A stretch of 64,000 nt of DNA from a virus, in UHGV virus genome UHGV-0294963, one strand, 5' to 3'. This document shows, in pieces, positions 14,985 through 64,000 of this stretch. Position 1 is the first letter of the stretch, and each line of letters starts with the position of its first letter. Position numbers and translations under genes: made by a program. Below the pieces are notes generated by a model. It saw nothing but the letters and a program-made list of their open reading frames with translations. It did not search any database and had not been told where the DNA came from.

Positions 14985-15017
14985 AACTTCGTTTCTGTAC
15001 CTGTACTATGTTATAAT
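14985..15017 (+). promoter_or_regulatory. promoter AACTTCGT-N16-TGTTATAAT, with an 8-bp inverted repeat (ctgtacct / aggtacag) flanking the -10
   Basis: exact motif; IR ctgtacct(14996-15003)...aggtacag(15020-15027) suggests an operator. Confidence 0.6.
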
Positions 15018-15083
15018 ATAGGTACAGTAAAACACAACATGGGTTCAACAGAGCCCTAACCAAGAATTCAGGAGGTAAATGTT

Positions 15084-16064: not shown

Positions 16065-16107
16065 ATATAAGATTTACTACCGTGTGATATGCGTTAGCGT
16101 GCTACAT
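16065..16107 (+). promoter_or_regulatory. conserved 40-nt block gatttactaccgtgtgRtatgcKttagcgtgctacRtg, unknown role
   Basis: near-identical copy at 24848-24893; the TAGCGTGCTA core also appears at 37655 and 63505. Confidence 0.4.
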
Positions 16108-16124
16108 GGTTTATAACTTCGTGT

Positions 16125-16147
16125 GCGTGAACGAAATATGTTATAAT
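16125..16147 (+). promoter_or_regulatory. promoter AACTTCGT-N16-TGTTATAAT
   Basis: exact motif upstream of 16222 gene. Confidence 0.6.
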
Positions 16148-16221
16148 GTGTATACAATAAATCATTGTGTGTACTCTGGTTGTATTGATTGCAGATAGTG
16201 ACGACGTGATGAGAAAGTGAG

Positions 16222-24728: not shown

Positions 24729-24766
24729 ACACGGTAGTGTCGTTGTCGACACTACCGTGTTTTTAT
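24729..24766. terminator. bidirectional rho-independent terminator at the convergence point
   Basis: 14-bp stem acacggtagtgtcg / cgacactaccgtgt, followed by ttttatttg (+ strand) and preceded by aaa/tct (- strand). Confidence 0.65.
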
Positions 24767-24847
24767 TTGTAGTTATATGATACATAAATCACGTTGCTAC
24801 ACAACGCACGCTAATGATTTGCGTGTGGTTCACACGAATCACATAAA

Positions 24848-24893
24848 CTTATACATGATTTACTACCGTGTGGTATGCTTTAGCGTGCTACGT
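24848..24893 (+). promoter_or_regulatory. second copy of the conserved 40-nt block (gatttactaccgtgtggtatgctttagcgtgctacgtg)
   Basis: near-identical to 16065-16107; abuts the stop of the - strand gene 24897..27104. Confidence 0.4.
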
Positions 24894-24896
24894 GAT

Positions 24897-27104
24897 TTAA
24901 TTGAGCACTAAGAAGTGACCTGCACTGTTCTCAGCTTTGAATGCCTGAATATCAGCTACAGGCTTCCAGTCGATGAACGTACCGTCGTTTGCTAGAAGCA
25001 TTTGCATTAGAGTTTCCTTAGCGATGTCTTCAGAGTCTCCAGGAACGACAATCCCGTCAAAATTGTCTTCTGGGAGCATACACTCAGCGACAAAACCAGG
25101 GCCTTGTGCTTGAGTGTCTCTTAGGTCTTCATAACCGAGTCCATATGCAGCGAAGTCACCTTCCTCAAAAACTCGATTTGTGCCTGTATCTGCAGCTGCA
25201 GGTTCACCGACTATACCTACGCCGCCGAGTGCATTGCTGTTAAAGCTGAGTGATGAGTTAAGACCAGCAGCATCTTCTGATTTCTTCATATGTTCCTGTC
25301 TTTTCTTAAATGCTGCTTTGAGCTTGTCTAGAGCAGATGCTCCTTTGTTTGCGTCACAGCTGGTATCTGAATTAGCATGCTTAGATGCGTCTAGATTGTC
25401 TTCGTCACCGTGAAGCATATCGTAAGAAGCCGCTGCCTGCTTGATATAGTTGACAGCATCGCTGCCCTTCATTCTCTTATCCAAGCTGCCTGATTCGGTA
25501 CGGATAATGCTGTAATCCTTGAATAAGGTTACATAGACAGTTGCGTTTGCCAAGTCACCTGAGGCAATCATTTCATTATCATTGTATCCCGCAGGTGCTA
25601 CGAAAGCACCGATATCGCCGACTTTGACTTCAACGCTGGTAGTATCAGGATTCTTCTCAATTGCACGAGTAAGAGCAGCTTGGAGCGACTCGTCGGTGAG
25701 CTCATCGGTAAGCACTTCTGTAGTGTTTTCGTCAAGTGAGGCATCAAGGTCCTCCCAGTTGACATCTTTGTACTTTCTTGCGATGTACTTCTGGATGTCA
25801 GGTTTAACCTTCATCGCTTCTTTTCTTCCGATGTACTTATTGAGAAGCAGCCAGGTTACGATAGACGCATCCAGCTTATATGCTTCTTGAGGAGTGATGA
25901 GCTTCTGCTCGACCATAGGCTGAAGAAGTTTCGCATTTTTTCTGTAAGCATCGATAGGCTTAATTGTTCCTGCCTTGACGCCTTCCAGAATTGCGGCAGG
26001 GTCATCAGGAATATTCTCTGCAACGGAGTACAATCCTTTCTTAATTAGCTTATCCTTTAGTGCTGGGTCAACCTTAACAGCATAGTCAGGTGAAATATAA
26101 CCCTGTTGTACCAGCCAAAGAATCCTATCAGGAGCTCTACGTGCAACGATTTCTGGTGCAATCAAGCCCTTGGTGACAAGGTCTTTAGCAAGTGTCGGCT
26201 TAGCTTTGAGAACCTTTTCTGCATCGACATAACCCTTCGTGACCAAACGCATAACACCAGGTGTGCTCATACGGTCGAGGTCAGACTTTTTAAGTTCTGC
26301 GATGCCGTCTGCGAGGAAGTACTCATAGCAGCGAGCTGGAGGATTCTGCAGCATACTATCGACCATATCAGACAAAAGACCTGCAAGCCAGTAAGCTGTA
26401 TGCTGGTCTCTCTTGTTCGCATTGTCACCGTTTGCTGTATATCCATACATACCCTGCTCAACATCGATGAATCTTCCCGACCTATGGTAGATTAGATGAG
26501 CCTCAGAGTTAGGATTGTAGTTAGGTTCGAATGACCAATCATCTACACCGCTCTCATCAGTCTCAGCACCCACCTCAACCGTGAGTGAAGACTTGGCTAC
26601 CCACTGGGTAGTGCCGAGTTTTTGAGAAGTGTACATCAAGGTTGACAGAATTAGGTCATCACCTTTGTTCTCACGGAAGGCGGTATAACGGAATCCGGGA
26701 GGAAGGTCAACAGCTTCTTGTGCAGCTCTGAATACGTTCTTGACACGCACTGCTACACCAGGGTCAAGTGCAGAATTAAGCCCAGTGCTCTGACCTTTGA
26801 GTGAATTATAGAAAGCATCGATGCGTCTGCAGCACTCAAGATTGGTATCAAGCCAATCACCGAGGTCTTCTGCACACATATCAGGGCTTTCGATGTCATA
26901 CTGCGGAACATATGCAAATCCTTCTTCGGTAGCTTCACTATTCTCTGTCGGAGTATAAATCTCGACAGCAGTACCGTCAGGAAGATTGATTGTAAAGCCT
27001 ACCTTTGAGTCATCAATGATAGTACCTTCTGTTCTGCAGCAGTTGAGTGTTCGGGCATTTGCAATGCCCATCGTTTTGCACATTTCTGAAATAAATACGT
27101 TCAT
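24897..27104 (-). CDS. structural(?) protein with 7 tandem ~21-22-aa repeats (LVxKGxIxPxxAxKxxP)
   Basis: repeats VTKGYVDAEKVLKAKPT / LVTKGLIAPEIVARRAPDR / LVQQGYISPDYAVKVDPA / LIKKGLYSVAENIPDDPAA / VKAGTIKPIDAYRKNAKL / VEQKLITPQEAYKLDAS / LLNKYIGRKEAMKVKPD; aaggagg RBS. Confidence 0.5.
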   Translation of the reverse strand: MNVFISEMCKTMGIANARTLNCCRTEGTIIDDSKVGFTINLPDGTAVEIYTPTENSEATEEGFAYVPQYDIESPDMCAEDLGDWLDTNLECCRRIDAFYNSLKGQSTGLNSALDPGVAVRVKNVFRAAQEAVDLPPGFRYTAFRENKGDDLILSTLMYTSQKLGTTQWVAKSSLTVEVGAETDESGVDDWSFEPNYNPNSEAHLIYHRSGRFIDVEQGMYGYTANGDNANKRDQHTAYWLAGLLSDMVDSMLQNPPARCYEYFLADGIAELKKSDLDRMSTPGVMRLVTKGYVDAEKVLKAKPTLAKDLVTKGLIAPEIVARRAPDRILWLVQQGYISPDYAVKVDPALKDKLIKKGLYSVAENIPDDPAAILEGVKAGTIKPIDAYRKNAKLLQPMVEQKLITPQEAYKLDASIVTWLLLNKYIGRKEAMKVKPDIQKYIARKYKDVNWEDLDASLDENTTEVLTDELTDESLQAALTRAIEKNPDTTSVEVKVGDIGAFVAPAGYNDNEMIASGDLANATVYVTLFKDYSIIRTESGSLDKRMKGSDAVNYIKQAAASYDMLHGDEDNLDASKHANSDTSCDANKGASALDKLKAAFKKRQEHMKKSEDAAGLNSSLSFNSNALGGVGIVGEPAAADTGTNRVFEEGDFAAYGLGYEDLRDTQAQGPGFVAECMLPEDNFDGIVVPGDSEDIAKETLMQMLLANDGTFIDWKPVADIQAFKAENSAGHFLVLN

Positions 27105-33867: not shown

Positions 33868-35238
33868 TTAGTAAACCAGGTTGGTAACAACGCCACGGAT
33901 GAATGCCTTCGGGTTCACCATCTTCAGTGCGTTAGATGTTGCGAAGCCCTGCTGACCTGTGAATGTAGCATCCATAAGAGCAGCTGTAGCAGTAACCGGC
34001 ATATATGTACCGAATACATAAGAAGGCTCAACATCGTTAGCTGAGACGTGACCGAGGACGTACTGGTCGTGAGGAATACCACCACGGAAGCAGTAAACCT
34101 TCTTATCGCCGAGTTCGCCGGCATAGTAAGAACCAGTTGTCTTCTGAGTGTTAGCGGGTTTGAACATAGACATACCCTGGATAACAGTCATGACGCTGGA
34201 ACCAACGAGCATGAAGTTAGGACGAATACGACCTGTTGCGTCGTAGATTCTCTGAGAACCTGCGTTGATAGCTCTGATGAAGGAGTTATCATGTGCAAGG
34301 TCGCCTGCCTGTCCCTGGCCGATAGGAGGAGTAGCGCTCCAAACAACAGGTTGACCTGCTGCTGCCTTCTGCCACATATCGTGAGCAACCTTGGTGTTGA
34401 GCTCATTTACGATAGTAGACGTTGCCTGCTCCTCGAGCATCTTAGGACCATCGAGACCGTACTGCTGTTCCATATCGTAAGCAGCTGCCATGGACCAACG
34501 TGCTGCGAGAGTGTTGTCCTCTGCAACAAGGTCGAGCCATTCAAGAGTGCTGTAGATAGGGGGTGTGTTCGCAGAAGCGGAAATGTTATCAACTCTGTAA
34601 GAAGCAAGTGTAGTAGCAGCTGCTGTTACACCTGTGATAACACCGGTTGCATAGTCGATTGTACCTGCATCAACAACAGTCGAGCCATTGAGGTACTGAA
34701 TCTTACCCTCGCCGTCGTCGAAGTAGCTGTGACCAGCCTGCTCAACGATTCTAACCGTTGTAGGAACAACAGGAGCGCGGAGGAAGAGGTCAGTGAGTGG
34801 CTCGTTATTGACATCACTACCAGAGTAGTTCTCAGTGCCTCTTGCGAGCTCGAAGGGGCTTGCAGAAACCTGACCTGCCTTTACAACACCCTTATCTTCA
34901 CCGAAGTGGAAAAGAGTGTAGGGAATTGCAGTATGTCTGCTAGACATAGGCTGCATGGTGCAGAACTCAGGAATGAGCCAGTCGACAAGTGTTGCACGAA
35001 GCACGTTCATGTAGGTTGTCTTCTGGAGCACATCACCGGGCTGAGTAGCGCTCGGGATAATAGAAGTAGGAAGGAGACTCGAGTTGAGCGCTCTCTTCTG
35101 CAGGGCGTATGCGTTATTGAGAATCTTCTGAGCTTTAGAAAGCCCAATAGCGTCATACCCACGTAGTCCTTTTGCAGTACGGCTGGAATTCAGGCTCTGA
35201 ATTCCTGCCTTGCCTGCGTTTGTGTACGGCTTAAGCAT
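33868..35238 (-). CDS. putative major capsid protein (N-terminal propeptide with two LNSS motifs)
   Basis: 456-aa protein following portal and protease-position genes; Gly/Ala/Thr-rich; LNSS at residues about 16-19 and 52-55. Confidence 0.5.
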   Translation of the reverse strand: MLKPYTNAGKAGIQSLNSSRTAKGLRGYDAIGLSKAQKILNNAYALQKRALNSSLLPTSIIPSATQPGDVLQKTTYMNVLRATLVDWLIPEFCTMQPMSSRHTAIPYTLFHFGEDKGVVKAGQVSASPFELARGTENYSGSDVNNEPLTDLFLRAPVVPTTVRIVEQAGHSYFDDGEGKIQYLNGSTVVDAGTIDYATGVITGVTAAATTLASYRVDNISASANTPPIYSTLEWLDLVAEDNTLAARWSMAAAYDMEQQYGLDGPKMLEEQATSTIVNELNTKVAHDMWQKAAAGQPVVWSATPPIGQGQAGDLAHDNSFIRAINAGSQRIYDATGRIRPNFMLVGSSVMTVIQGMSMFKPANTQKTTGSYYAGELGDKKVYCFRGGIPHDQYVLGHVSANDVEPSYVFGTYMPVTATAALMDATFTGQQGFATSNALKMVNPKAFIRGVVTNLVY

Positions 35239-37796: not shown

Positions 37797-39749
37797 TCAG
37801 TGCATTTGTGTTAATCGGTCGAAAAATGACCAATCGTCTGGATTTCTTTCGAACGCAGTTCTGTCGTAGGCTTGCAGCCCACCGAATAGGCCGTTCTTGA
37901 ACGACGAAGGCATTTTATCTTCTTTTTCGTGTGAATACATCGTAAAATCATGTAAAACCGGAGTATAAGGTAACAGACTCAAATCCCATACAGCGCCTGC
38001 CAAGCTATCCGAAATATCTTTTGAACCATTAGCAGGATGGTCTAGCTTACCTGTATGGGTATCGTATTGAAGATAAATCAATTCATTTTCTAATCTAGCG
38101 TAATGAATTAGACTAATTCTACGCTCCATCATCGATTCACGCAGAGTCTTATAACCTTCTGGTGTACGGTCGAGTGAGCGTATAGCCGTGGTGAATCCTT
38201 TATCTCGCAATATCTGATGAGACTCAGCTGTCTGGTAGGTATCGGTACTGATTATAGCAATATTAAATCCCACACTTCGTAGCCAGTACAGGAACCTTCG
38301 GTTCTTTGCCATGCTAATTTCGGTACCAGGTGGAGCCTTGATACCGACAGAGAATACCTGAGCATAAACTCGTTTTTCTATTGTTCCATCATCGGTATCT
38401 GCCAGAACATTATCTACATAGCAAGCACCCGATATACCAGTAATATCATTCTTCAATGACGTATCAAGATGTATAGCCATCGGTCTTGATTTATATTCCT
38501 TAGGTACCTTTTCTAGGTCGAAAAATTCTTGATACTCCATATGGTCGTTGCATCCTATCTCAAGTACCTCCGCTGAGAACGGATTTGGTCTATCTGTGTA
38601 GCACGAGCTGATAATCTTATAACTGAAGTAGCTGGTTGTACCCGGTAGTGCTTTACCAGCAAGGTCCTGTAATGCAGTTATGATGTTGAACCGAAAATCT
38701 GACTCTAGTTCAACCGGGACATCCAGTATCTCATATCCAAGCTGTCGTATGGCATCAAGGTCTTCTCCTTCTTCAATCACTCTAGGAGTTAGCTGTTTCG
38801 CACCGTAAGCAACCTTAAACATTTTACCAGAATATGTATCAGAGGGTTTTACAACCCACAGCGGCTCGTCGACAATGAACAGTTTATCAGCGTCGTTCTC
38901 TTTTCGGCGTTTATCTAGATACACCTCTAAGAAGTCGTCTTCTGCTTTCTTAGAAGAAACCAGGAACATCTTACCCAAGAGTTTTCCGTTCCTGATGAAA
39001 CGTGATTTAATTCTGGCTTTAACCGAAGAGTAAGTCTGCATAATCTTAGACTTCTCCATGGTTGTATTCGAACCCGGTGCGAAGTTAACCTCATCAAGGA
39101 AACCACAGAATATTTGCTGACCTAAACCGTGACTTGCTTTAGAACCAGCTTTAATAGCAATATGTTTTCCTGGTACATAATAAGGGTTAGATGCGGAACC
39201 TGCAACGGTACCATGAGACAGAAACCAAGGAGATTCCATAAGACACGCATGAAGTCGTCCGTAACCAACGCTTTGTGCCAGTGCAACCGTAGCGTTGAAG
39301 AAGAATATAGCAATTTCGTCGGTATCTGCGAATCCGAAATATCTTTGAGGGAATTTCAGACATAATAGTCGATATGTTAGGTAAGCAATGGCATAGACTG
39401 CAATCGCGGTCTTACCAATACCGATAGCCCCTGTAAACGCAATTTCTTCGTATTCGGTATCTCCACCGGCAAATATCTTGCGTAGTTGTTCTCTCCAGAA
39501 AGGGTATATCTGATTACCTAGATTAGTGGCTTTACCTAGATATTCAGGGTCTTCTAGAAACGTGTCTATATCTACCGGAATCTCTTCATAGTCTTCTAGC
39601 CAGACTTTTTCATAGGTTTCACTCTCACCTGTTTCACTGAGCTCTCTGAGTATCTGCTGCATAGTCTCTTGCTCAGAAGGAGACAATGAATTATAGATAC
39701 TTTGAAATCGTTCAGGAGCTAGCATAGTGAGATTTAGCGTACTACTCAT
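37797..39749 (-). CDS. terL: terminase large subunit
   Basis: Walker A FTGAIGIGKTAIAVYAIAY near the N-terminus; 650 aa; C-terminal nuclease-like Asp-rich region. Confidence 0.75.
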   Translation of the reverse strand: MSSTLNLTMLAPERFQSIYNSLSPSEQETMQQILRELSETGESETYEKVWLEDYEEIPVDIDTFLEDPEYLGKATNLGNQIYPFWREQLRKIFAGGDTEYEEIAFTGAIGIGKTAIAVYAIAYLTYRLLCLKFPQRYFGFADTDEIAIFFFNATVALAQSVGYGRLHACLMESPWFLSHGTVAGSASNPYYVPGKHIAIKAGSKASHGLGQQIFCGFLDEVNFAPGSNTTMEKSKIMQTYSSVKARIKSRFIRNGKLLGKMFLVSSKKAEDDFLEVYLDKRRKENDADKLFIVDEPLWVVKPSDTYSGKMFKVAYGAKQLTPRVIEEGEDLDAIRQLGYEILDVPVELESDFRFNIITALQDLAGKALPGTTSYFSYKIISSCYTDRPNPFSAEVLEIGCNDHMEYQEFFDLEKVPKEYKSRPMAIHLDTSLKNDITGISGACYVDNVLADTDDGTIEKRVYAQVFSVGIKAPPGTEISMAKNRRFLYWLRSVGFNIAIISTDTYQTAESHQILRDKGFTTAIRSLDRTPEGYKTLRESMMERRISLIHYARLENELIYLQYDTHTGKLDHPANGSKDISDSLAGAVWDLSLLPYTPVLHDFTMYSHEKEDKMPSSFKNGLFGGLQAYDRTAFERNPDDWSFFDRLTQMH

Positions 39750-47116: not shown

Positions 47117-49471
47117 TTATTGTTCCGGGAATCTGAATTTGATATCCTTGTCGATTGCCGCTTTGCATTCATCAATTGTCTTGTAGATGTGTGGTGAGAA
47201 CTTACCATAAGGACTTACTGCAATATACCCTCCTGACTTCTCACCGCCGGTGATGAGATAATCCTTGTATCTCATAGCACCATCGTCGACGATACTATCA
47301 TCCAGGTCTACCTCAGAACTGTTCAGAGAATCATTATCAACTACAACAGCGAAGCCGTCTTCGAGAGGCTTTATACCAGAAAGCTGGATGCCGAACTCTG
47401 CAGCAATTGGCTCGATTTCGGTTGGCTCCATTCCACGAATGATAATCTTATAGCCTGAGCCTTCACCTTCCGTAGTAGGCACGGTGCTTACCTGCTTTGC
47501 TCCTTCTTTGATTTTCTCGACGAACAATTTTAATGCAGGATTGTCGTGTACCGAGCTATTCAGTTCAGACTTTCTAGAAGAATCCATCTTGACTTCGTCG
47601 TTCATGTCGCAGACGGTAGTCCAGATGCAACCAGGATACTCGACTTCAAATTGTTCTTGAATTGCTTCGTATAAATCCATGCCCTCAAGATTGTCACTGA
47701 CTGTAATTACTGCCGGCTTCTCAATTTCATTGCCGTTCTCGTCCTCGTAGTACACCTGAAATTGTTTCTTAGGCTTGTTCACGTCAGCAGTACTCGGTTC
47801 GATTGAGCTATCTACACTCTGCTTTGTTGGAGTAACGTCACCTTCATGAGCGTCGAAAGAATCCCAGCCGTTCTGTACCAGTGTGGTCACGACGTGCTCT
47901 ATGATATCATCTGCTTCTGATGCTTGCTCGTCAGAGCCGTCAAAGCCAATGCGAATCGTAGTCGAATCTGGTCGAGCAACCTGCTGAATAGTGATATCCA
48001 GATTTTTATCTCTCAATTCGTTCTCGATAATATTCTTAAGGTCGGACACTCTTTCCTGAGTGCGAGCGAAGTCCTGGGGAACCGTTACCTCACTGATAGC
48101 ACAATTAAGAGAGCTGTCGATATCATCGAAATCCTCGGAGTCGAGAGGGTCATCATCTCCGAGGATAACGCGCATAATTTCGTCAACAATTAGCAAGTCT
48201 TCAGCGGCCTGTATAATGTCTACAAGAGCTTCATGCTCATCGACGCTTGCCAATAGCTCCTTTAGTGAACCTTCTACGTCGCCGAACATCTTTTCCTTGA
48301 TTTGGTCATCGTAGTTAAGGTCTTCGATAGCCTCTACAATACCAACCAACATTTCATGTTCATCGACCTCTGCCGCAGCTTCCTTCAGCGAATTGGCGGA
48401 TTCACAGTTCAGTTCATTCTTTTTTTTAGATGAGTCGAGGCTTTCATCACCTTCGCATACGCAGGGTTCCTGGCCGCACTCGGGGCAGACAGCATCAGTC
48501 GGAAGAGCTGCTTGAGCAGCATCAGCAATTACGACAAAACCTTCAGGAATTTCGTCGTCCTCTGTTTCCTTGACGAAGAGTGCGAGCTCATTGGTATCAG
48601 GATTCTGAACAATCTTGATATCGTCGAGTGCAACCTCATTGCCAGACTCAGTGGTAATCATTGCAACTTCCTCAGAACCTTCACCGACAACATCTCCGCC
48701 ATCAGTGTTTCCTTCAGGTTCTTCTGAAGAGTTCAGCGTAGTACTTCCTGTGGTCTTGTTAGTCCCTTTAGCAGAGTCGAGCTCCTCGGTTGCAGATTCC
48801 CAGTCGACAGATTTGGTTACATCTGATGATTCTACTGCCTGGCGTGCCTTCTCTGCGTCTGCATCCGGGCAGTCGATTTTTACCTTAACGTCGGTATTGT
48901 TAACCTTCTCGAAGTCAACCTTAGCACCAGGAACAGCTTTCTCGATTCTGCTTCTGAGCAGACGCTCTGTAGTATCATTATCAAGGTCGGCAAAATCATT
49001 ATAGATAGTCACTGTGCCTAAAACCTTGGTGGAACCAACTTCGCAGTTAAGACTAGAATCAGCATTTGTCTTGTCGCAGGAGCCATTCATGTCATCCTTT
49101 GTGTACCACTTACCGTCTGTACGATACCAGAGCTGTTCTTTACCGTCCTTGACAGCCCAGAAATCACCGTCCAAACCTGCCTCTTCAGGAGATGCAAGAC
49201 GAACAACCTGAGCGCCAGTCTCATTCTCGAAAGCTTCGAGATATTTCTTTGCTTCTTCTTCGCTAAGCCAATGACAGAGCTCCTGAAGTACAGATTCTCT
49301 TGAGCAGTTGAGCTTACGAATAGTTGCTAGACTTACGCTTGCGATAGCAGAAGTTCTACTCCTCGAACTATTTAGCTCTGTGTTGCGAGGGCGACGCTGC
49401 TTTGTCGTAGACTGAGTCTGAGTCTGAGTCTGAGCATTTGTCTTTGCAACCGGTTTAGTTACATTTACCAT
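47117..49471 (-). CDS. large acidic protein with internal duplications and 8 LN[SC]x motifs: candidate processed internal head/scaffold-like protein
   Basis: 784 aa; duplicated segment EAAAEVDEHEMLVGIVEAIEDL / ELLASVDEHEALVDIIQAAEDL; TELNSS, KLNCS, SSLNCE, TTLNSS, NELNCE, SSLNCA, SELNSS, DSLNSS; aaaggag RBS. Confidence 0.5.
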   Translation of the reverse strand: MVNVTKPVAKTNAQTQTQTQSTTKQRRPRNTELNSSRSRTSAIASVSLATIRKLNCSRESVLQELCHWLSEEEAKKYLEAFENETGAQVVRLASPEEAGLDGDFWAVKDGKEQLWYRTDGKWYTKDDMNGSCDKTNADSSLNCEVGSTKVLGTVTIYNDFADLDNDTTERLLRSRIEKAVPGAKVDFEKVNNTDVKVKIDCPDADAEKARQAVESSDVTKSVDWESATEELDSAKGTNKTTGSTTLNSSEEPEGNTDGGDVVGEGSEEVAMITTESGNEVALDDIKIVQNPDTNELALFVKETEDDEIPEGFVVIADAAQAALPTDAVCPECGQEPCVCEGDESLDSSKKKNELNCESANSLKEAAAEVDEHEMLVGIVEAIEDLNYDDQIKEKMFGDVEGSLKELLASVDEHEALVDIIQAAEDLLIVDEIMRVILGDDDPLDSEDFDDIDSSLNCAISEVTVPQDFARTQERVSDLKNIIENELRDKNLDITIQQVARPDSTTIRIGFDGSDEQASEADDIIEHVVTTLVQNGWDSFDAHEGDVTPTKQSVDSSIEPSTADVNKPKKQFQVYYEDENGNEIEKPAVITVSDNLEGMDLYEAIQEQFEVEYPGCIWTTVCDMNDEVKMDSSRKSELNSSVHDNPALKLFVEKIKEGAKQVSTVPTTEGEGSGYKIIIRGMEPTEIEPIAAEFGIQLSGIKPLEDGFAVVVDNDSLNSSEVDLDDSIVDDGAMRYKDYLITGGEKSGGYIAVSPYGKFSPHIYKTIDECKAAIDKDIKFRFPEQ

Positions 49472-49573: not shown

Positions 49574-50032
49574 TCAGGTTGTCTGTTTATATCCCGGATT
49601 CCATCCTTTCTGGATGTAAGTAGCGAACTGACACTCTGGTATGTGCTTGATTACTCCGTCTTTATTAACAACACGTCTATTCCTTCGAGCTTCTGCAAGT
49701 TTCGCATAGCTTCTCGGTGAATCTCGTTTGAATCGATTGAAACCGAAACGAATATTTGTAGTCTGATATTCTCTAATATATTGAGCTTCTAAATCACAAG
49801 CTAACTGAGCTGCGTTGGTCTGAGACTTAGGTACTGTAGCTAATATTTCGTACCTGAAGGAATCCCAACCAAATCTATTGATGGCTTTCCAGAAGCAGCT
49901 ACAGTGCTTATACCCAGCACCTCCGTTTCCTGCACGCTCAGCTTGCTGTGAACCGGTTTTACCGATATAACGCCTACCGTCTGGTGCGATATACGCATAA
50001 ATCGTATAGCAGTCACCCTTAAGATATGCCAT
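49574..50032 (-). CDS. GIY-YIG homing endonuclease (free-standing)
   Basis: N-terminal TIYAYIAPDGRRYIGKTG (GIY..YIG) plus basic C-terminal DNA-binding-like region; own promoter and RBS. Confidence 0.7.
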   Translation of the reverse strand: MAYLKGDCYTIYAYIAPDGRRYIGKTGSQQAERAGNGGAGYKHCSCFWKAINRFGWDSFRYEILATVPKSQTNAAQLACDLEAQYIREYQTTNIRFGFNRFKRDSPRSYAKLAEARRNRRVVNKDGVIKHIPECQFATYIQKGWNPGYKQTT

Positions 50033-50065
50033 ATATGTAACCTCCTTTGTTGTTATCGTATCTAT

Positions 50066-50098
50066 ATTATAACATATTTCTGTTAACTCTACGAAGTT
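50066..50098 (-). promoter_or_regulatory. promoter AACTTCGT-N16-TGTTATAAT (- strand)
   Basis: reverse complement of acgaagtt (50091-98) and attataaca (50066-74). Confidence 0.6.
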
Positions 50099-51271: not shown

Positions 51272-52996
51272 TCAAAGTGTTCTATCAGCAAAGACTTCAC
51301 CAACACCCTTGATTACTTCTTGAATAAATGGGACCCGAATTTGGTCGTATACTGTAGCACCCTTAGCATTGCCGATAAGATGCTGAATCTGTGATTTAGG
51401 TAGTGCCATAAAACCAGCAAGGGCATTCTGGAACGATTGACCTGCATAATGAGAACGGAGGTATGCCTCGATTTCACCAGCACCAGCTTTCGCAAGACCG
51501 TTAATACCCAGACCAACCAGAATCTGTGCTAACGTCATCGACTTCTTAGACGCATCAACTCTTTGCATATAGGTATTCATCTTCGCCCTGCCACTACCTG
51601 GAATTGTGAGTATGTCGATAGGCTTGATTTTATAGAAGTCAGCCGGAGTCTGAAGTTTACCTTTATCAAAGAGTGCAGTTACCAAGCTGCTTGCGACACC
51701 CTTGAAATTACCGACTTTCTTGTCAGTCCAACCGTTCAGACGAGCCAGCAGCTTCTCCTTGCACTTAACATTCGCACAAACACCTAGTGCTGAAATACCG
51801 GTAAGTACCGAACCACAAGCCGGGCAAACCGTAGGCTTAGGAATTGGAATAGACTCGGGTGTGTGCCTTGCAGATTTAATTGCAGGAATAATATCACCTG
51901 CTTTATACACAACAACCATATCGTTAATTTGAACATCGAGTTCCTGGATTCGTCCCCAGTTATGCAGCGTAGCTTTGGTAATGGTACTACCCATGACATT
52001 AACCGGCTCCAGAATAGCTACAGGATTGAGCTTACCGGTTGCGCCTACCTGCCACTCAACACCTTTAAGGAGAGTCTCCTTTTCTTGTGCAGGAAATTTA
52101 TAAGCAATAGCCCATCTCGGTACTACACCATTATCTCCAAGCTGTTCTCTAAGTTCGAGATTATCAACCTTGAGAACCATACCATCAATCGGAATATCCT
52201 CAGCTTCACGCTTTGCCTGAACCTCGGAGATAATGGCTGCTACATTTTCACCGGTGCTCACTTCCCAATGAGCTACGGGACTAAAGCCCCACAATGCTAA
52301 TGCCTGCAAGCACTTGCTATGAGTATCGAGGGTGCCTACAGCCGAAGGAATGTCGTTGATAGTCTTCGGATTTTCAAGATTGAACACTCTGCAAGAGAGG
52401 TAAGCAGCTCTTTCAGGTTCGCTGTCTCTCTTGAATATACCCACAGCGGTATTTCGAGGATTTGCTTGTTTTCCGTATCTCTTGCAGTAGTCTGCAAAGC
52501 GAGACTTTAGCATAAACACCTCACCGCGGACGATTATTTCATCTTTACAGTCGATTGTCTTAGGAATATCGGCAATATACTGAGCAGCGGAGATACGCTC
52601 TACACCCTTTTTACCGTCACCTCGGGTTGATGCCGAAACGAGCTCACCATTTCTGTAGATAAGCTGAACAGACAAACCGTCGAGTTTATATTCTTGGAAT
52701 ACCTTTGACACGTTCTTGTGCTTATTCAGGAACTCTTTAGCATCGTCGACCGTGAATACATCGAGAAGACTGAGCATCGCGACGGGATGTATGACATCGC
52801 CATCACCCATATCGGGATTTACCGACTGCGTCGGGCTGTTCTCTGCAGCTCGATGATACTTCTCATAATCGTAGATGTCTGCCATATAGCTGTCATACAG
52901 TTCATCAGAAATACCAGTTAAAGCTCCTTGAATGTAGAGCAGTCGTGCATTGTTCACGACTTTGATAAGTTCATGATATCTTTCTTCTGTTATCAT
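51272..52996 (-). CDS. ligA: NAD-dependent DNA ligase (LigA-type, short form)
   Basis: adenylation motif EYKLDGLSV; OB-fold; Zn finger CPACGS..C..C; HhH region; ctaggaggtta RBS. Confidence 0.85.
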   Translation of the reverse strand: MITEERYHELIKVVNNARLLYIQGALTGISDELYDSYMADIYDYEKYHRAAENSPTQSVNPDMGDGDVIHPVAMLSLLDVFTVDDAKEFLNKHKNVSKVFQEYKLDGLSVQLIYRNGELVSASTRGDGKKGVERISAAQYIADIPKTIDCKDEIIVRGEVFMLKSRFADYCKRYGKQANPRNTAVGIFKRDSEPERAAYLSCRVFNLENPKTINDIPSAVGTLDTHSKCLQALALWGFSPVAHWEVSTGENVAAIISEVQAKREAEDIPIDGMVLKVDNLELREQLGDNGVVPRWAIAYKFPAQEKETLLKGVEWQVGATGKLNPVAILEPVNVMGSTITKATLHNWGRIQELDVQINDMVVVYKAGDIIPAIKSARHTPESIPIPKPTVCPACGSVLTGISALGVCANVKCKEKLLARLNGWTDKKVGNFKGVASSLVTALFDKGKLQTPADFYKIKPIDILTIPGSGRAKMNTYMQRVDASKKSMTLAQILVGLGINGLAKAGAGEIEAYLRSHYAGQSFQNALAGFMALPKSQIQHLIGNAKGATVYDQIRVPFIQEVIKGVGEVFADRTL

Positions 52997-53363: not shown

Positions 53364-53398
53364 CTCCTTTCTTCCCCCTATGTGCTATTACATTCAAT

Positions 53399-53432
53399 AT
53401 TATAACACATAGGAGGTGTGGCATACGAAGTT
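53399..53432 (-). promoter_or_regulatory. promoter AACTTCGT-N17-TGTTATAAT (- strand)
   Basis: reverse complement of acgaagtt (53425-32) and attataaca (53399-407). Confidence 0.6.
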
Positions 53433-55061: not shown

Positions 55062-55093
55062 TGTTTGCTTCCTCCTTTATTTATTGTATCTAT

Positions 55094-55126
55094 ATTATAA
55101 CACATTCCTGCGTGTGTTACGAAGTT
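55094..55126 (-). promoter_or_regulatory. promoter AACTTCGT-N16-TGTTATAAT (- strand)
   Basis: exact motif. Confidence 0.6.
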
Positions 55127-55910: not shown

Positions 55911-56111
55911 TTATCCTAATAAGTCCCAGAACTCTTTAGAAGTAATCTGGTATATCTTAGTCGAGTCATAGGCATCGGTGATGACTACCTCTCCATTCTG
56001 CTCATACATGGAAATGAGCAATCCAGTACTGTCTTTCGGGTTACCACCGACTTTGCTGTCCTGGATGCGGTTTTCTTCTTTTAGCTCACGTCGTATAGGT
56101 AAATCCTTCAT
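55911..56111 (-). CDS. hypothetical protein
   Basis: aaggaggggg RBS. Confidence 0.4.
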   Translation of the reverse strand: MKDLPIRRELKEENRIQDSKVGGNPKDSTGLLISMYEQNGEVVITDAYDSTKIYQITSKEFWDLLG

Positions 56112-56973
56112 GATAAACCCCCTCCTTGATGGGCAAGACTACAATGTCGTGATTGCAAGCAGAAGCATGGTTGTTCGCCATATCAATAAATACAGATATT
56201 TCGCTAAATTCAACCGAACTGTTACTTATCAGCTTTAAGCCTACAGTATCTCCCCAAACGAACAAAGTACCCGCCGGTAAAGTCGAAAAGGTCTGCTTGG
56301 TACGTTCTTTGTCAGAAATAACCTTAACCTTGATATTAGAAGAAACCGTTCTGAGCTTATAGTAATCCATATCTACAATATTAGATTCATACGCTGCAGG
56401 GTGCTTTACCCAATCACCGTCTACCCGGTTGTCTTTTATCTTAATGCCTATCAGATTATACCAGCGGAATACAGCACCTACCGGTAATTCTGAGAACGAA
56501 ATATCACCCTCCCAGTCTTCCTTCAGCTTCTCGATTTCAGATTGACTCAACGGCTTCACCCACAAGTCGGTTCGAGAGGTAATTCGATGTCCGTTGTCTA
56601 AACGAATAATATTTCCTTGATGCTTGGGCGACTTATCAGTGATAATCTCATTCGTGAGTTTTCTGAACAGCTTACCACCGAAGTTAAAGATAGTGCCTAC
56701 AGGGACTTTCTCGAGAGGAAGCATACCACGCATCGCCTGATATCTCTTCTTATCGATTTTGCAGCCAGGGTATGCTTTTTCGATAGCAGCTACAATTTCG
56801 GTATTTATCTGTTCGGTGTTGGTGCAACCAGAAGCAGAATACCAGTCGTCGCCTAGGAAGTAATGACATAGTTCATCAAGAGCAACCTGAGCTTTCATTG
56901 GTGGTGCAAATATACCATAATCACCAGGTTCGCATAAACTCAAAATACGGTCTCTGTCAAATTTCTTGTGCAT
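56086..56973 (-). CDS. hypothetical protein
   Basis: aaggagg RBS. Confidence 0.45.
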   Translation of the reverse strand: MHKKFDRDRILSLCEPGDYGIFAPPMKAQVALDELCHYFLGDDWYSASGCTNTEQINTEIVAAIEKAYPGCKIDKKRYQAMRGMLPLEKVPVGTIFNFGGKLFRKLTNEIITDKSPKHQGNIIRLDNGHRITSRTDLWVKPLSQSEIEKLKEDWEGDISFSELPVGAVFRWYNLIGIKIKDNRVDGDWVKHPAAYESNIVDMDYYKLRTVSSNIKVKVISDKERTKQTFSTLPAGTLFVWGDTVGLKLISNSSVEFSEISVFIDMANNHASACNHDIVVLPIKEGVYHEGFTYTT

Positions 56974-57421: not shown

Positions 57422-57454
57422 AATGTATACCTCCTTGTGTGTTATTGTATCTAT

Positions 57455-57487
57455 ATTATAACACAGAATAACCGTGATTGCGAAGTT
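57455..57487 (-). promoter_or_regulatory. promoter AACTTCGc-N16-TGTTATAAT (- strand)
   Basis: motif family. Confidence 0.55.
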
Positions 57488-59791: not shown

Positions 59792-59877
59792 ATTACTCCT
59801 CCTCTTTCTGTTTGAGTAAACCCATAAGACGACTTCACTCTAAAATCCTGATTGTGTTCTACACTTATCGTATCCAC

Positions 59878-59910
59878 ATTATAACATATTACAATGCGCA
59901 GTACGAAGTT
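59878..59910 (-). promoter_or_regulatory. promoter AACTTCGT-N16-TGTTATAAT (- strand)
   Basis: exact motif. Confidence 0.6.
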
Positions 59911-62688: not shown

Positions 62689-62913
62689 TTACTCGACCTC
62701 TTTCGTATCGAACACATCTGGTATGATTACGATAGCATCATCAGGCAATCCGCGTTGTCTTAGAACACTATGCCACCCATCCGGGTCACTTTCATACTGT
62801 CTACGAGTCAGATATAGATATTCCTCTTCTGGCTGACCTGAATCATGGAACAGACGCTCAGCTGCCTGTTCGATTGCTTTCTTGAGCTTTTCCTTGTAAT
62901 ATTTGCTAGACAC
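62689..62913 (-). CDS. hypothetical protein
   Basis: GTG start after aaggag; promoter directly upstream. Confidence 0.4.
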   Translation of the reverse strand: MSSKYYKEKLKKAIEQAAERLFHDSGQPEEEYLYLTRRQYESDPDGWHSVLRQRGLPDDAIVIIPDVFDTKEVE

Positions 62914-62939
62914 AGTATCAACTCCTTTACTGTACCTAT

Positions 62940-62972
62940 ATTATAACATATTGCGGTGTGGGTAACGAAGTT
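62940..62972 (-). promoter_or_regulatory. promoter AACTTCGT-N16-TGTTATAAT (- strand)
   Basis: exact motif. Confidence 0.6.
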
Positions 62973-62999
62973 GCGAAGCACCGCATAAGCACTCTAAAA

Positions 63000-63560
63000 T
63001 TCCAGAATTGTCAACCGCAAGCTAGGAGTCGGGACTTCTGATATAGAAACTTTTTGCGAGAAATCGTGCTAGCAGAAAACGGTATCTAGGATTCTGGGGG
63101 TGTGGATTACCTGACACGAGAAGCTGGGCTTTCGAAATCAAGGGAGTCAAGAACCAGGGCTGGGAGACCGAGGAGTAGGGTTCGTAACCGGGAGCTGGGA
63201 GGTAGGGGTAGGGGGTAAAGGGTAGGGGATAGGGGGTTTGGATATGGAGACTTTTTGCGAAATCAGTGTCGGAGAAAAAACGTAAAAAGCGGGTCCGTAG
63301 TATCGGAATACCGTTGAAAGGTATTTCAGGACCGGTATTTTCGGGCGATTATTTTAAGGTATCTACAGCAGAACTTCGGTATTTTCCTGGTTTTGTGTTA
63401 TATAACACATCTAGCAGAACGACTCGAAGCTCCTTGCTACCAGCCTGAACCTAGCACGCTAACGCACGCTAAGGGCTTGCTGCTAGACATATGTTATACA
63501 TCGTAGCTATGTTACCCTTAGCGTGCGTTGTGCTGCTATGTGCTGCTTTAGCGCTCACGA
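63000..63560. repeat. 560-bp non-coding region: GCTGGG iterons, (TAGGGG)n G-tract array, ~40-bp direct repeats, long imperfect palindrome
   Basis: no ORF of 60 aa or more on the - strand; G-runs at 63190-63240 in an otherwise AT-rich genome; direct repeats gaaactttttgcgagaaatc (63043) and gagactttttgcgaaatc (63247). Confidence 0.6.
63373..63440. promoter_or_regulatory. divergent promoter pair sharing the palindromic -10 TGTTATATAACA (AACTTCGg on +, AgCTTCGa on -)
   Basis: both strands give 8-mer-N16/17-TGTTATATAA; the - transcript would cross the G-tract region, the + transcript the long palindrome. Confidence 0.4.
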
Positions 63561-63569
63561 GCTCGTTGC

Positions 63570-63962
63570 TTAAATGAGTGGCATTCTCCACCAAGCACTG
63601 TCTTCTTTGAGCTCTTCTGGGACTGCTCCGTTCGAATCCAAGATATAGAATGCCAGCTGTGCTGCTTGCTGCATTACCGTGGGGTGCATCGAACCCCTGA
63701 CCACTCTCAGACTTACTTCCTTAAGAATTCCTTCCTGTCCCTCTTCGAGCCCTAAGCCAGAAGCGATAAGCTTCTTTGCTAACTCGATACTTCTCTCATC
63801 TCGACCGTCGGGGTAACGCTGTGCCATTGCCAGCACAAAAGCTACGCTGAAGTTATAGGCTTCCTCACCTACCTGAGCGTCTTCGATTGCCTGTGCGATT
63901 TCTGGAACACGCTTTGCGAACCCAAAGCTATTTGCTTCACTATCGAGCTCTTTGGTTGCCAA
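63570..63962 (-). CDS. hypothetical protein
   Basis: 130-aa ORF at the window edge. Confidence 0.4.
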   Translation of the reverse strand: MATKELDSEANSFGFAKRVPEIAQAIEDAQVGEEAYNFSVAFVLAMAQRYPDGRDERSIELAKKLIASGLGLEEGQEGILKEVSLRVVRGSMHPTVMQQAAQLAFYILDSNGAVPEELKEDSAWWRMPLI

Positions 63963-64000
63963 GGCATAAGCTCTTGCTTTAAGACATTCGATGAACTTAT

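Follow-up and report, generated by a model that had tools for sequence, protein, structure and literature searches.

The gene-free gap at positions 62914-63569 of the window (the whole 64,000-nucleotide stretch analyzed, from viral genome UHGV-0294963) is a real and conserved composite non-coding module, novel as a variant rather than as a category. Each of the five features listed in the original prediction was found, and conservation of four extends to as many as 16 contigs of related phages. The region had been treated as one feature, but comparison of the relatives shows what reads, from its sequence, as a mosaic of at least four separable control elements, on the - strand like the flanking genes, with a hairpin unlinked to the rest. 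We tentatively favor, as a possible rather than a probable reading, an untranslated transcript from a leftward promoter, P(-), with a leader that would bind protein and a C-rich tail of Rho-loading type; the anatomy of this unit, its conservation, the membership of its promoter in a phage class and its absence of ORF and structure are observed. The module provides a promoter class of the phage's own, together with a two-way promoter, a 130-nt element constrained more than the surrounding genes and a C-tract/G-quadruplex signal that outlasts sequence turnover.

Phage context and absence of a coding sequence

The source is an uncultivated tailed gut phage of ∼150 kb, and the window carries a T4-type portal and major capsid protein and also encodes an NAD-dependent ligase, a sheath protein and a weak terminase match. 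The nearest cultured phages are myoviruses of Bacillus, Listeria and Streptococcus, with a capsid identity of only ∼30%, and BLAST searches for cultured relatives of the region and of 24 kb in 50,697 phage records gave no match. The exact 74-amino-acid neighbor protein is also found on ENA scaffold ZELL14-1_SAMEA2467055_METAG-scaffold_36 (150,573 bp), where the region lies ∼6 kb from one contig end. Large uncultivated gut and rumen phages are almost wholly unannotated, and here the DNA polymerase candidate, too, is without a family match.

From 24.9 to 64 kb, the genes are on the - strand. The gap (∼650 bases) lies in the early region and separates two small early genes of that strand: upstream, a gene whose 3′ part occupies 63570 to 64000 (full length, 144 to 157 aa), and downstream, a 74-aa gene (62689-62913) with its own promoter. 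None of the neighboring proteins has a Pfam or PHROG function. G+C content is 41 to 50% per kb across the window, so the genome is not markedly AT rich, contrary to an earlier remark, and the usual bias of its sense strand is G>C.

The claim that the gap holds no credible ORF stands: the only ORFs within 62914-63569 are of ≤60 aa, all without a ribosome-binding site, and the 60-aa frame on the + strand was rejected as a gene, since 5 of 15 relatives interrupt it by a stop or frameshift and its start is not conserved. A conserved coding frame revealed by comparative genomics had been named among the findings that would overturn the prediction, and comparison of the relatives gave no conserved ORF. 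Frame openness is uninformative for the conserved block described below, which is short and in which all frames are often open.

Elsewhere in the window, a 295-aa protein (56086-56973, - strand) has an N-terminal Tad8 domain (Type II Thoeris inhibitor, E = 2.9e-12), which suggests an anti-defense gene of the early region. A GIY-YIG-type homing-endonuclease-like ORF (49574-50032, - strand) lies between a 784-aa protein without a family match (47117-49471) and the NAD-dependent DNA ligase (51272-52996). A 372-aa ORF (34048-35166, + strand) antisense to the major capsid gene almost certainly results from composition rather than being a gene. Where the + and - gene blocks converge, a GC-rich palindrome at 24741-24775 (cacggtagtgtcg..cgacactaccgtg), with T runs on both sides, resembles an intrinsic terminator that acts in both directions.

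Related versions of the region

Sixteen distinct related versions of the region were obtained by three routes, namely, flanking proteins, an invariant 21-mer and a two-part DNA pattern in metagenomes. Loci L013 to L024 were chosen for exact TGTTATATAACA and CAACGGTATTCC, and the invariance of both words in them is by construction; the six genomes from the other routes also carry TGTTATATAACA and CAACGGTATTCC. The relatives are phylogenetically non-independent.

Flanking genes differ on both sides among relatives, and the module persists. An extra small gene with its own promoter stands between the hairpin and the module in L001 (6463-6916), L003 (6460-6771) and, at the equivalent place, L012 and L006; one version encodes an 83-aa CxxC...CxxC protein. 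Downstream genes also vary, with a different gene and promoter in L002, L016 and L022. These extra and different flanking genes indicate that the module behaves as an autonomous unit among shuffled small genes.

A phage promoter class and a two-way promoter

The original prediction of a divergent promoter pair sharing a palindromic -10 is well founded: TGTTATATAACA occupies 63396-63407, and each strand has, at a distance of exactly 17 nt upstream, an (A/G)CTTCG box. The predicted leftward promoter, P(-) (63399 to 63431, - strand), consists of an AGCTTCG box, 17 nt and TGTTATATA, and the predicted rightward promoter, P(+) (63372 to 63404, + strand), of an AACTTCG box, 17 nt and TGTTATATA, the palindromic -10 being common to both. 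Start sites are predicted at ∼63392 (-) and ∼63411 (+), ∼19 bp apart. The arrangement, a common near-palindromic -10 with boxes on both strands at promoter spacing, is that of a symmetric bidirectional promoter; the shared hexamer TATATA is without the canonical T at -7, which weighs against transcription from P(-).

AACTTCG-N17-TGNTATA has nine matches in the window, compared to 0.14 expected, and the two arms of the palindrome are among them; the P(+) arm is an exact match and the P(-) arm has one mismatch. The P(-) box, GGAGCTTCGAGT, is near-invariant among 15 variants, and the P(+) box is AAATTCG in five relatives. The next early promoter (62926 to 62975, - strand), of the AACTTCG-N17-TGTTATAAT-ATAGGTACAGTAAA family, serves the 74-aa gene. 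The family, as AACTTCG-N17/18-TGTTATAAT-ATAGRTACARTAA, precedes many small genes in the window (14985-15031, 16115-16160, 50045-50098, 53380-53430, 55075-55126, 57440-57487, 59860-59910 and 62926-62975). Its upstream box is unlike TTGACA and, by analogy, may be a phage activator site, as is the MotA box in T4.

A symmetric cassette, GAGCTTCGAGTTC-N-TGTGTTATATAACA-N-GAACTCGAA, is found at several other intergenic sites of related genomes (L027, 1614-1670; L030, 6672-6728; L031, 4663-4719; L032, 1242-1297; L033, 5084-5139; L012, 4647-4702; and L029, 2372-2427). These sites often adjoin a terminator hairpin, and the neighboring sequence looks like an opposite-strand gene.

In L003 and L006, an intrinsic terminator lies 25 to 30 nt upstream of P(-), and sequences read directly show a stem-loop and T run at the same upstream position in most other relatives. 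No terminator-like site was found between the block and the next promoter in L003 and L006. A + strand promoter that would make a G-rich RNA was considered and rejected: the match TTGCGA-18-TAAAAT to the left of the tract is at chance level and is not kept in L013 or other relatives, and no conserved + strand promoter lies left of the tract.

A conserved ORF-less block

The conserved ORF-less block (63265 to 63392, - strand) would form the leader of the predicted P(-) transcript and aligns in all relatives. Within it are a near-invariant 27-mer, CCTTTCAACGGTATTCCGATACTAYGG (63295-63321), a T run on the - strand (a 16-nt A/T run, 63274-63289), ATACC(G) repeats, the sites of which vary among relatives, and an inverted repeat, GAAATACC-N7-GGTATTCC. 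Mean pairwise identity is 86% in the block and 61% at third and 81% at first plus second codon positions in the adjacent gene, and block identity exceeds third-position identity in 54 of 55 pairs. The block is single copy in each of the six related viral contigs matched by the 21-mer scan.

A structured-RNA reading of the block was rejected: the alignment of relatives gave no covariation (18 weak pairs, -11 kcal/mol, covariation term of -0.07), and single-sequence fold z-scores are unremarkable. No Rfam match at the gathering score was found in the window, and permissive searches gave chance-level matches only (E up to 10 for 62800-63700 and up to 5 for L013 and L023), leaving the block with neither the covariance-model match nor the covariation-supported structure by which a known structured RNA family is recognized; ARAGORN found no tRNA or tmRNA. 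An intrinsic terminator at the T run was likewise discarded, with no stable hairpin beside it and a CGGUA/UACCG stem that is not maintained across variants. That the 27-mer mimics a CRISPR repeat or derives from a prophage was rejected on one scan of 185,579 species genomes, which gave a single chance match, in a gene of a Saprospirales MAG, and a search for trans-antisense targets of the block in the 64 kb gave chance 12-mers only.

The absence of coding, of covariation and of an Rfam match indicates that the constraint on the block is at the sequence level. This suggests a protein-binding platform, for which RNA and DNA are equally fitting candidates; the constraint, the ATACC repeats and the inverted repeat would suit DNA-binding sites just as well, which counts against an RNA reading.

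A hypervariable C-tract array between direct repeats

The array (63083 to 63231, - strand) carries CTCCCRG motifs and one ACCTCC, and its complement is G rich. Three GCTGGGA repeats had been reported; two are exact (63159 and 63194), and the third, at 63123, is GCTGGGC. Across the window GCTGGGA is at chance frequency (6 found and 5.1 expected); in the homologous region of the relatives, however, no word is more enriched than its complement, TCCCAG(C) (37 versus 1.6 expected, in 12 of 13 relatives). A Chi-site or restriction-decoy role for GCTGGGA was rejected, the word differing among relatives and not being overrepresented genome-wide.

The predicted run of G tracts is present at 63190-63236 on the + strand, with G3-5 runs and loops of 2 to 5 nt, and is the sole G3+N1-7 ×4 motif on either strand of the 64 kb. 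It has the sequence properties expected of a G-quadruplex motif (at least four G3+ runs, loops of 1 to 7 nt and a score of >1.5), with a G4Hunter score of 2.44. Of 13 variants, 10 have a motif on that strand, compared to ∼2.4 expected from composition, and the maximum G4Hunter score is 1.36 to 2.44 across all 13 relatives. One further motif only, within a gene, occurs in 130 kb of related DNA; it is the second motif of L001, where the coding sequence is proline rich, and it has no bearing on the array.

On the sense strand, 63170-63249 (80 nt) holds 43 C and 4 G (z = 7.1; the C/G ratio of the next best segment is 2.6). In 13 variants, the stretch from the block to the next promoter is 169 to 405 nt long, with 27 to 54% C and 9 to 22% G on the sense strand and with 6 to 17 C3+ runs versus 0 to 1 G3+ runs per variant; C3+ runs total 166, versus 129.6 ± 7.6 in composition-matched shuffles. 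The array sequence is not alignable between relatives, with tandem units that differ by lineage [(TAGGGG)n in the window, (TGCGGGG)n in L007 and (AGCTGGG)/(AGTCGGG)n in L001]; strand bias and TCCCAG/GCTGGGA are kept. ACCTCC occurs in 8 of 13 variants, mostly 48 to 97 nt into the tail, and TCCC and CTCCC occur 5 to 13 and 1 to 7 times per variant, respectively. The minimum-energy fold leaves the main C-tract stretch of the tail unpaired (fold z = -0.06). The strand asymmetry opposes the G>C bias of the genome's sense strand and points to a function at the RNA or single-stranded DNA level. In the variable region of L003 (7135-7215), a perfect tandem (GTCAGCTGTCAGTT) is repeated ∼6 times; it is not C rich, and C tracts come after it.

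The flanking direct repeats that had been described were found at 63031-63059 and 63232-63260 (79% identity), extend to ∼50 nt and are also present in relatives. DR1 (63232 to 63283, - strand) is of type B, GCAAAAAGTCTCCATATC, and DR2 (63031 to 63082, - strand) lies upstream of the next promoter. The repeats are of two sequence types, A and B, both copies in one genome usually being of the same type, and three copies are present in L015 and L023. Helical phasing of the repeats was rejected, as their spacings (147 to 282 bp) are out of phase. Relative to the next promoter, DR2 is at ∼-45 to -95; DR1 precedes a degenerate version of the ACCGCAACTTCG box. Duplication of sequence upstream of a promoter is therefore the probable source of the module. 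All relatives retain the array although ∼50-nt flanking direct repeats should delete it by recombination, and this retention argues that it is under selection.

A conserved hairpin in the upstream 3′ untranslated region

A 29-pair RNA hairpin (63454 to 63536, - strand), with stem arms AACGCACGCTAA / TTAGCGTGCGTT, lies in the 3′ untranslated region of the upstream gene. The long imperfect hairpin of the original prediction was recovered with arms at 63449-63475 and 63515-63541, reaching slightly beyond the coordinates first given, together with its recurrent 9-mer, GCACGCTAA (6 copies versus 0.46 expected). In the alignment of relatives, the consensus has an energy of -39 kcal/mol, with 97.8% of cells paired (slid controls, ≤46%) and compensatory changes at three pairs, a number matched by 16 of 500 shuffles. 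There are nine G·U cells on the - strand versus three would-be wobble pairs on the + strand, and the evidence thus leans to RNA on the gene strand. In L006, L012, L016 and L023, the hairpin is 0.5 to 0.9 kb farther upstream, with an extra gene between it and the module, and because of this displacement it is regarded as an independent 3′ untranslated region element. The form of an RNase III-type hairpin, at least ∼20 bp of imperfect double-stranded RNA after a cistron and selectively maintained, is found here, and the likeness would suggest a processing or stability element of the RNase III-site type.

The stem sequence recurs at other 3′ ends (24806/24880), where a long hairpin built from the GCACGCTAA 9-mers follows the last - strand gene, and a single GCACGCTAA arm lies at 16094, ∼20 nt upstream of a promoter box. 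A repeated element of ∼40 nt, GATTTACTACCGTGTGRTATGCKTTAGCGTGCTAC, is found at 16073-16112 and 24860-24900 (+ strand), and motifs similar to it adjoin the symmetric promoter cassettes in L027, L030 and L012.

A candidate non-coding transcription unit on the - strand

The region had been proposed to specify a structured non-coding RNA of ∼400 nt, C rich and from the - strand. The C-rich, - strand part of this proposal is the best supported, by a phage-class promoter, an upstream terminator in most relatives, the lack of an ORF and the conserved asymmetry; the RNA does not appear to be structured (fold z = -0.06 and a covariation term of ∼0). Because the only supported promoter through the tract is the - arm, the RNA would be C rich and G poor.

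For the reading that we tentatively favor, we infer that the unit is transcribed, that it depends on Rho and that a protein binds the leader. Upstream early transcripts would end at the conserved hairpin and, in most relatives, also at the intrinsic terminator, and RNA polymerase would restart at the leftward arm of the symmetric promoter, at ∼63392. The product would be an untranslated RNA, the first ∼125 nt of which would be a sequence-constrained protein platform, and the next 150 to 300 nt, very C rich, G poor and unstructured, would have a rut-like composition. Rho would end the RNA ahead of the next early promoter (62948), giving either the 3′ end of a non-coding RNA or a factor-controlled checkpoint or insulator between early units, as at lambda nutR-tR1. 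The + strand G-quadruplex motif would be the mirror image of a compositional constraint on the C tracts.

Rho-loading (rut) sites are C rich, G poor and unstructured. The 60 to 80 or more nt of C-rich, G-poor RNA that a rut site would have are present (43 C and 4 G in 80 nt, with the bias in 13 variants), with little structure and no conserved ORF to bring translation. Several findings count against the Rho-loading transcript: the C-rich tract is unique in the 64 kb, so that Rho loading is no general strategy of the phage; the excess of C3+ runs, the G-quadruplex motifs and the recurrent TCCCAG are none of them needed for a rut site; and the genes downstream, having a promoter of their own, give no obvious need for a read-through checkpoint. 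Should the tract prove to load Rho, factor-dependent timing would be documented in a Firmicutes-type phage.

Replication, DNA-level control and other roles

An origin of replication or a site at which recombination is initiated, in either case working at the DNA level, is an unlikely alternative with several points of contact with the data. The block would be the initiator platform, the AT-rich palindromic promoter would provide transcriptional activation and easy melting, and the unwound G-tract strand would fold as a quadruplex that keeps the duplex open or stalls forks. The single-copy block, constrained in sequence without RNA covariation and holding ATACC(G) repeats and an inverted repeat, is compatible with such a platform, as are the persistence of the module between differing genes, the clustering of G tracts above composition and the independent rise of quadruplex microsatellites in the window and L007. 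The defining features of an origin appear, however, to be missing. Where an iteron origin has at least three conserved direct repeats of one 12- to 22-bp site in roughly helical phase, the supposed iterons are irregularly spaced 7-mers of variable number, in places in 7-nt tandem, and the spacing of the direct repeats is out of phase. No long AT-rich unwinding element is evident, the A/T-rich candidates near the array being only the 16-nt run at 63274-63289 and the TATATA core of the palindrome; DnaA boxes were sought by eye and rejected, with a single one-mismatch site that is not conserved. No recognizable initiator, helicase or primase gene lies within several kb, genes have the same direction on both sides, and no GC-skew inflection is seen besides the tract itself. 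Moreover, the G-rich strand is the template of the sole supported promoter, and a pyrimidine-rich RNA is unfavorable for a priming R-loop.

Control of transcription purely at the DNA level is also doubtful. According to this explanation, the palindrome and the block would serve the two-way and next promoters as operators or activator sites, and the direct repeats and C-tract modules would be leftovers of tandem duplication, expanded by slippage and with little function of their own. The position of DR2 ahead of the next promoter, the decayed ACCGCAACTTCG box after DR1, the third repeat copy in L015 and L023 and the slippage-prone heptamer tandems agree with it, and the cassette CTTCGAGTTC..TGTGTTATATAACA..GAACTCGAA recurs in related genomes like repeated regulatory cassettes. 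It accounts poorly for a strand bias of 7 SD, opposite to the sense G>C of the genome and kept in 13 of 13 variants despite sequence turnover, for an array retained between recombinogenic repeats and for repeats that are usually of the same type in one genome, which implies coupling between them.

The G/C-tract microsatellite, conserved in position but hypervariable in sequence, kept on the same strand and with co-evolving direct repeats, might conceivably be a functional phage cis-element in its own right, although we rate this as rather improbable: either a quadruplex-assisted, transcription-linked start of replication or recombination, comparable in logic to mitochondrial CSB2 or herpesvirus oriLyt, or an RNA decoy that soaks up Rho. 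To our knowledge, neither a quadruplex-assisted origin nor a Rho-decoy RNA is known for phages, and an origin or quadruplex element here would be a cis-element of a kind new to phages.

Little probability attaches to a trans-acting C-rich RNA, in which single-stranded CUCCC/UCCC and ACCUCC (anti-Shine-Dalgarno-like) motifs would pair with ribosome-binding sites. The motif counts given above, the predicted unpaired tail and the AAGGAGG-type binding sites of the phage genes are in keeping with it, and the motif class is described: sRNAs of Firmicutes with UCCC motifs and C-rich regions (RsaE/RoxS type) target Shine-Dalgarno sequences (PMC2790875 and PMC5419742). However, known members are short, structured and terminator ended, with the motif in loops, whereas the phage RNA would be a long one with neither structure nor terminator; such a motif would fail to tell host from phage messages, and its counts largely follow from the TCCCAG repeat.

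A pac site or terminal-repeat boundary, also named in the original prediction, is most improbable: short repeats, G/C tracts and palindromes do adjoin strong early promoters here, as short-repeat arrays adjoin the T7 terminal repeat, the herpesvirus "a" sequence and the T5 injection-stop region, and the region is near one end of the ENA scaffold, while the short metagenome contigs L019 and L020 end 21 and 42 nt past the block core, but the terminase-like gene (37797-39749) is ∼23.5 kb away, the region takes very different positions in four related contigs (147 to 167 kb), L019 and L020 end at different bases, and a conserved block followed by a hypervariable tract would break assembly graphs anyway, so that neither adjacency to terminase genes nor a reproducible genome end is found.

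Comparison with known systems

In T7 and in Bacillus phage SP82, early genes are separated by RNase III processing hairpins, and the hairpin of this phage resembles them in being long, imperfect and placed after an early cistron; here it could alternatively be a stabilizing 3′ hairpin or a protein-binding site.

The T4 origins ori(uvsY) and ori(34) are R-loop origins. The module shares with them a phage-specific promoter, made of an activator box and a -10, with a non-coding element downstream of it, and its phage has a capsid of T4 type; unlike the T4 elements, which use an AT-rich unwinding element of ∼50 bp, the module has a C/G-tract array and is predicted to make no purine-rich RNA that would favor an R-loop. 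In a known promoter-adjacent G-tract system, the tract is likewise conserved in position, variable in length and quadruplex prone, and there it is tied to termination and primer formation; in that system, the RNA and non-template strand are G rich, whereas here the RNA would be C rich, with the G tracts on the template.

The RsaE/RoxS-type sRNAs share with the putative phage RNA multiple unpaired UCCC motifs complementary to Shine-Dalgarno sequences; they differ in being short, structured and terminator ended, while the phage RNA would be at least 350 nt, unstructured and hypervariable.

Lambda nutR-tR1 is a leader signal followed by a Rho-dependent terminator. The module has the same succession of a promoter, a short constrained untranslated leader and then a C-rich, G-poor, unstructured tract, without an intrinsic terminator and between early transcription units. 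In contrast to lambda, it has no boxA/boxB match and no known antiterminator gene, its tract is far more C rich (∼54% C and 5% G in 80 nt) and made of tandem heptamers, and the genes downstream have their own promoter.

For the two-way promoter, PMC10268837, summarizing Warman et al. (2021), describes symmetric bidirectional promoters in bacteria. The phage pair agrees with the bacterial class in its divergent arms, its one near-palindromic -10, the predicted distance of ∼19 bp between starts and the putative non-coding or antisense nature of one product. The differences are that both phage arms have an (A/G)CTTCG box at 17 nt rather than a TTGACA -35 and that the phage TATATA is without the T at -7, and the spacing reported there as commonest in the bacterial class is 18 bp (PMC10268837).
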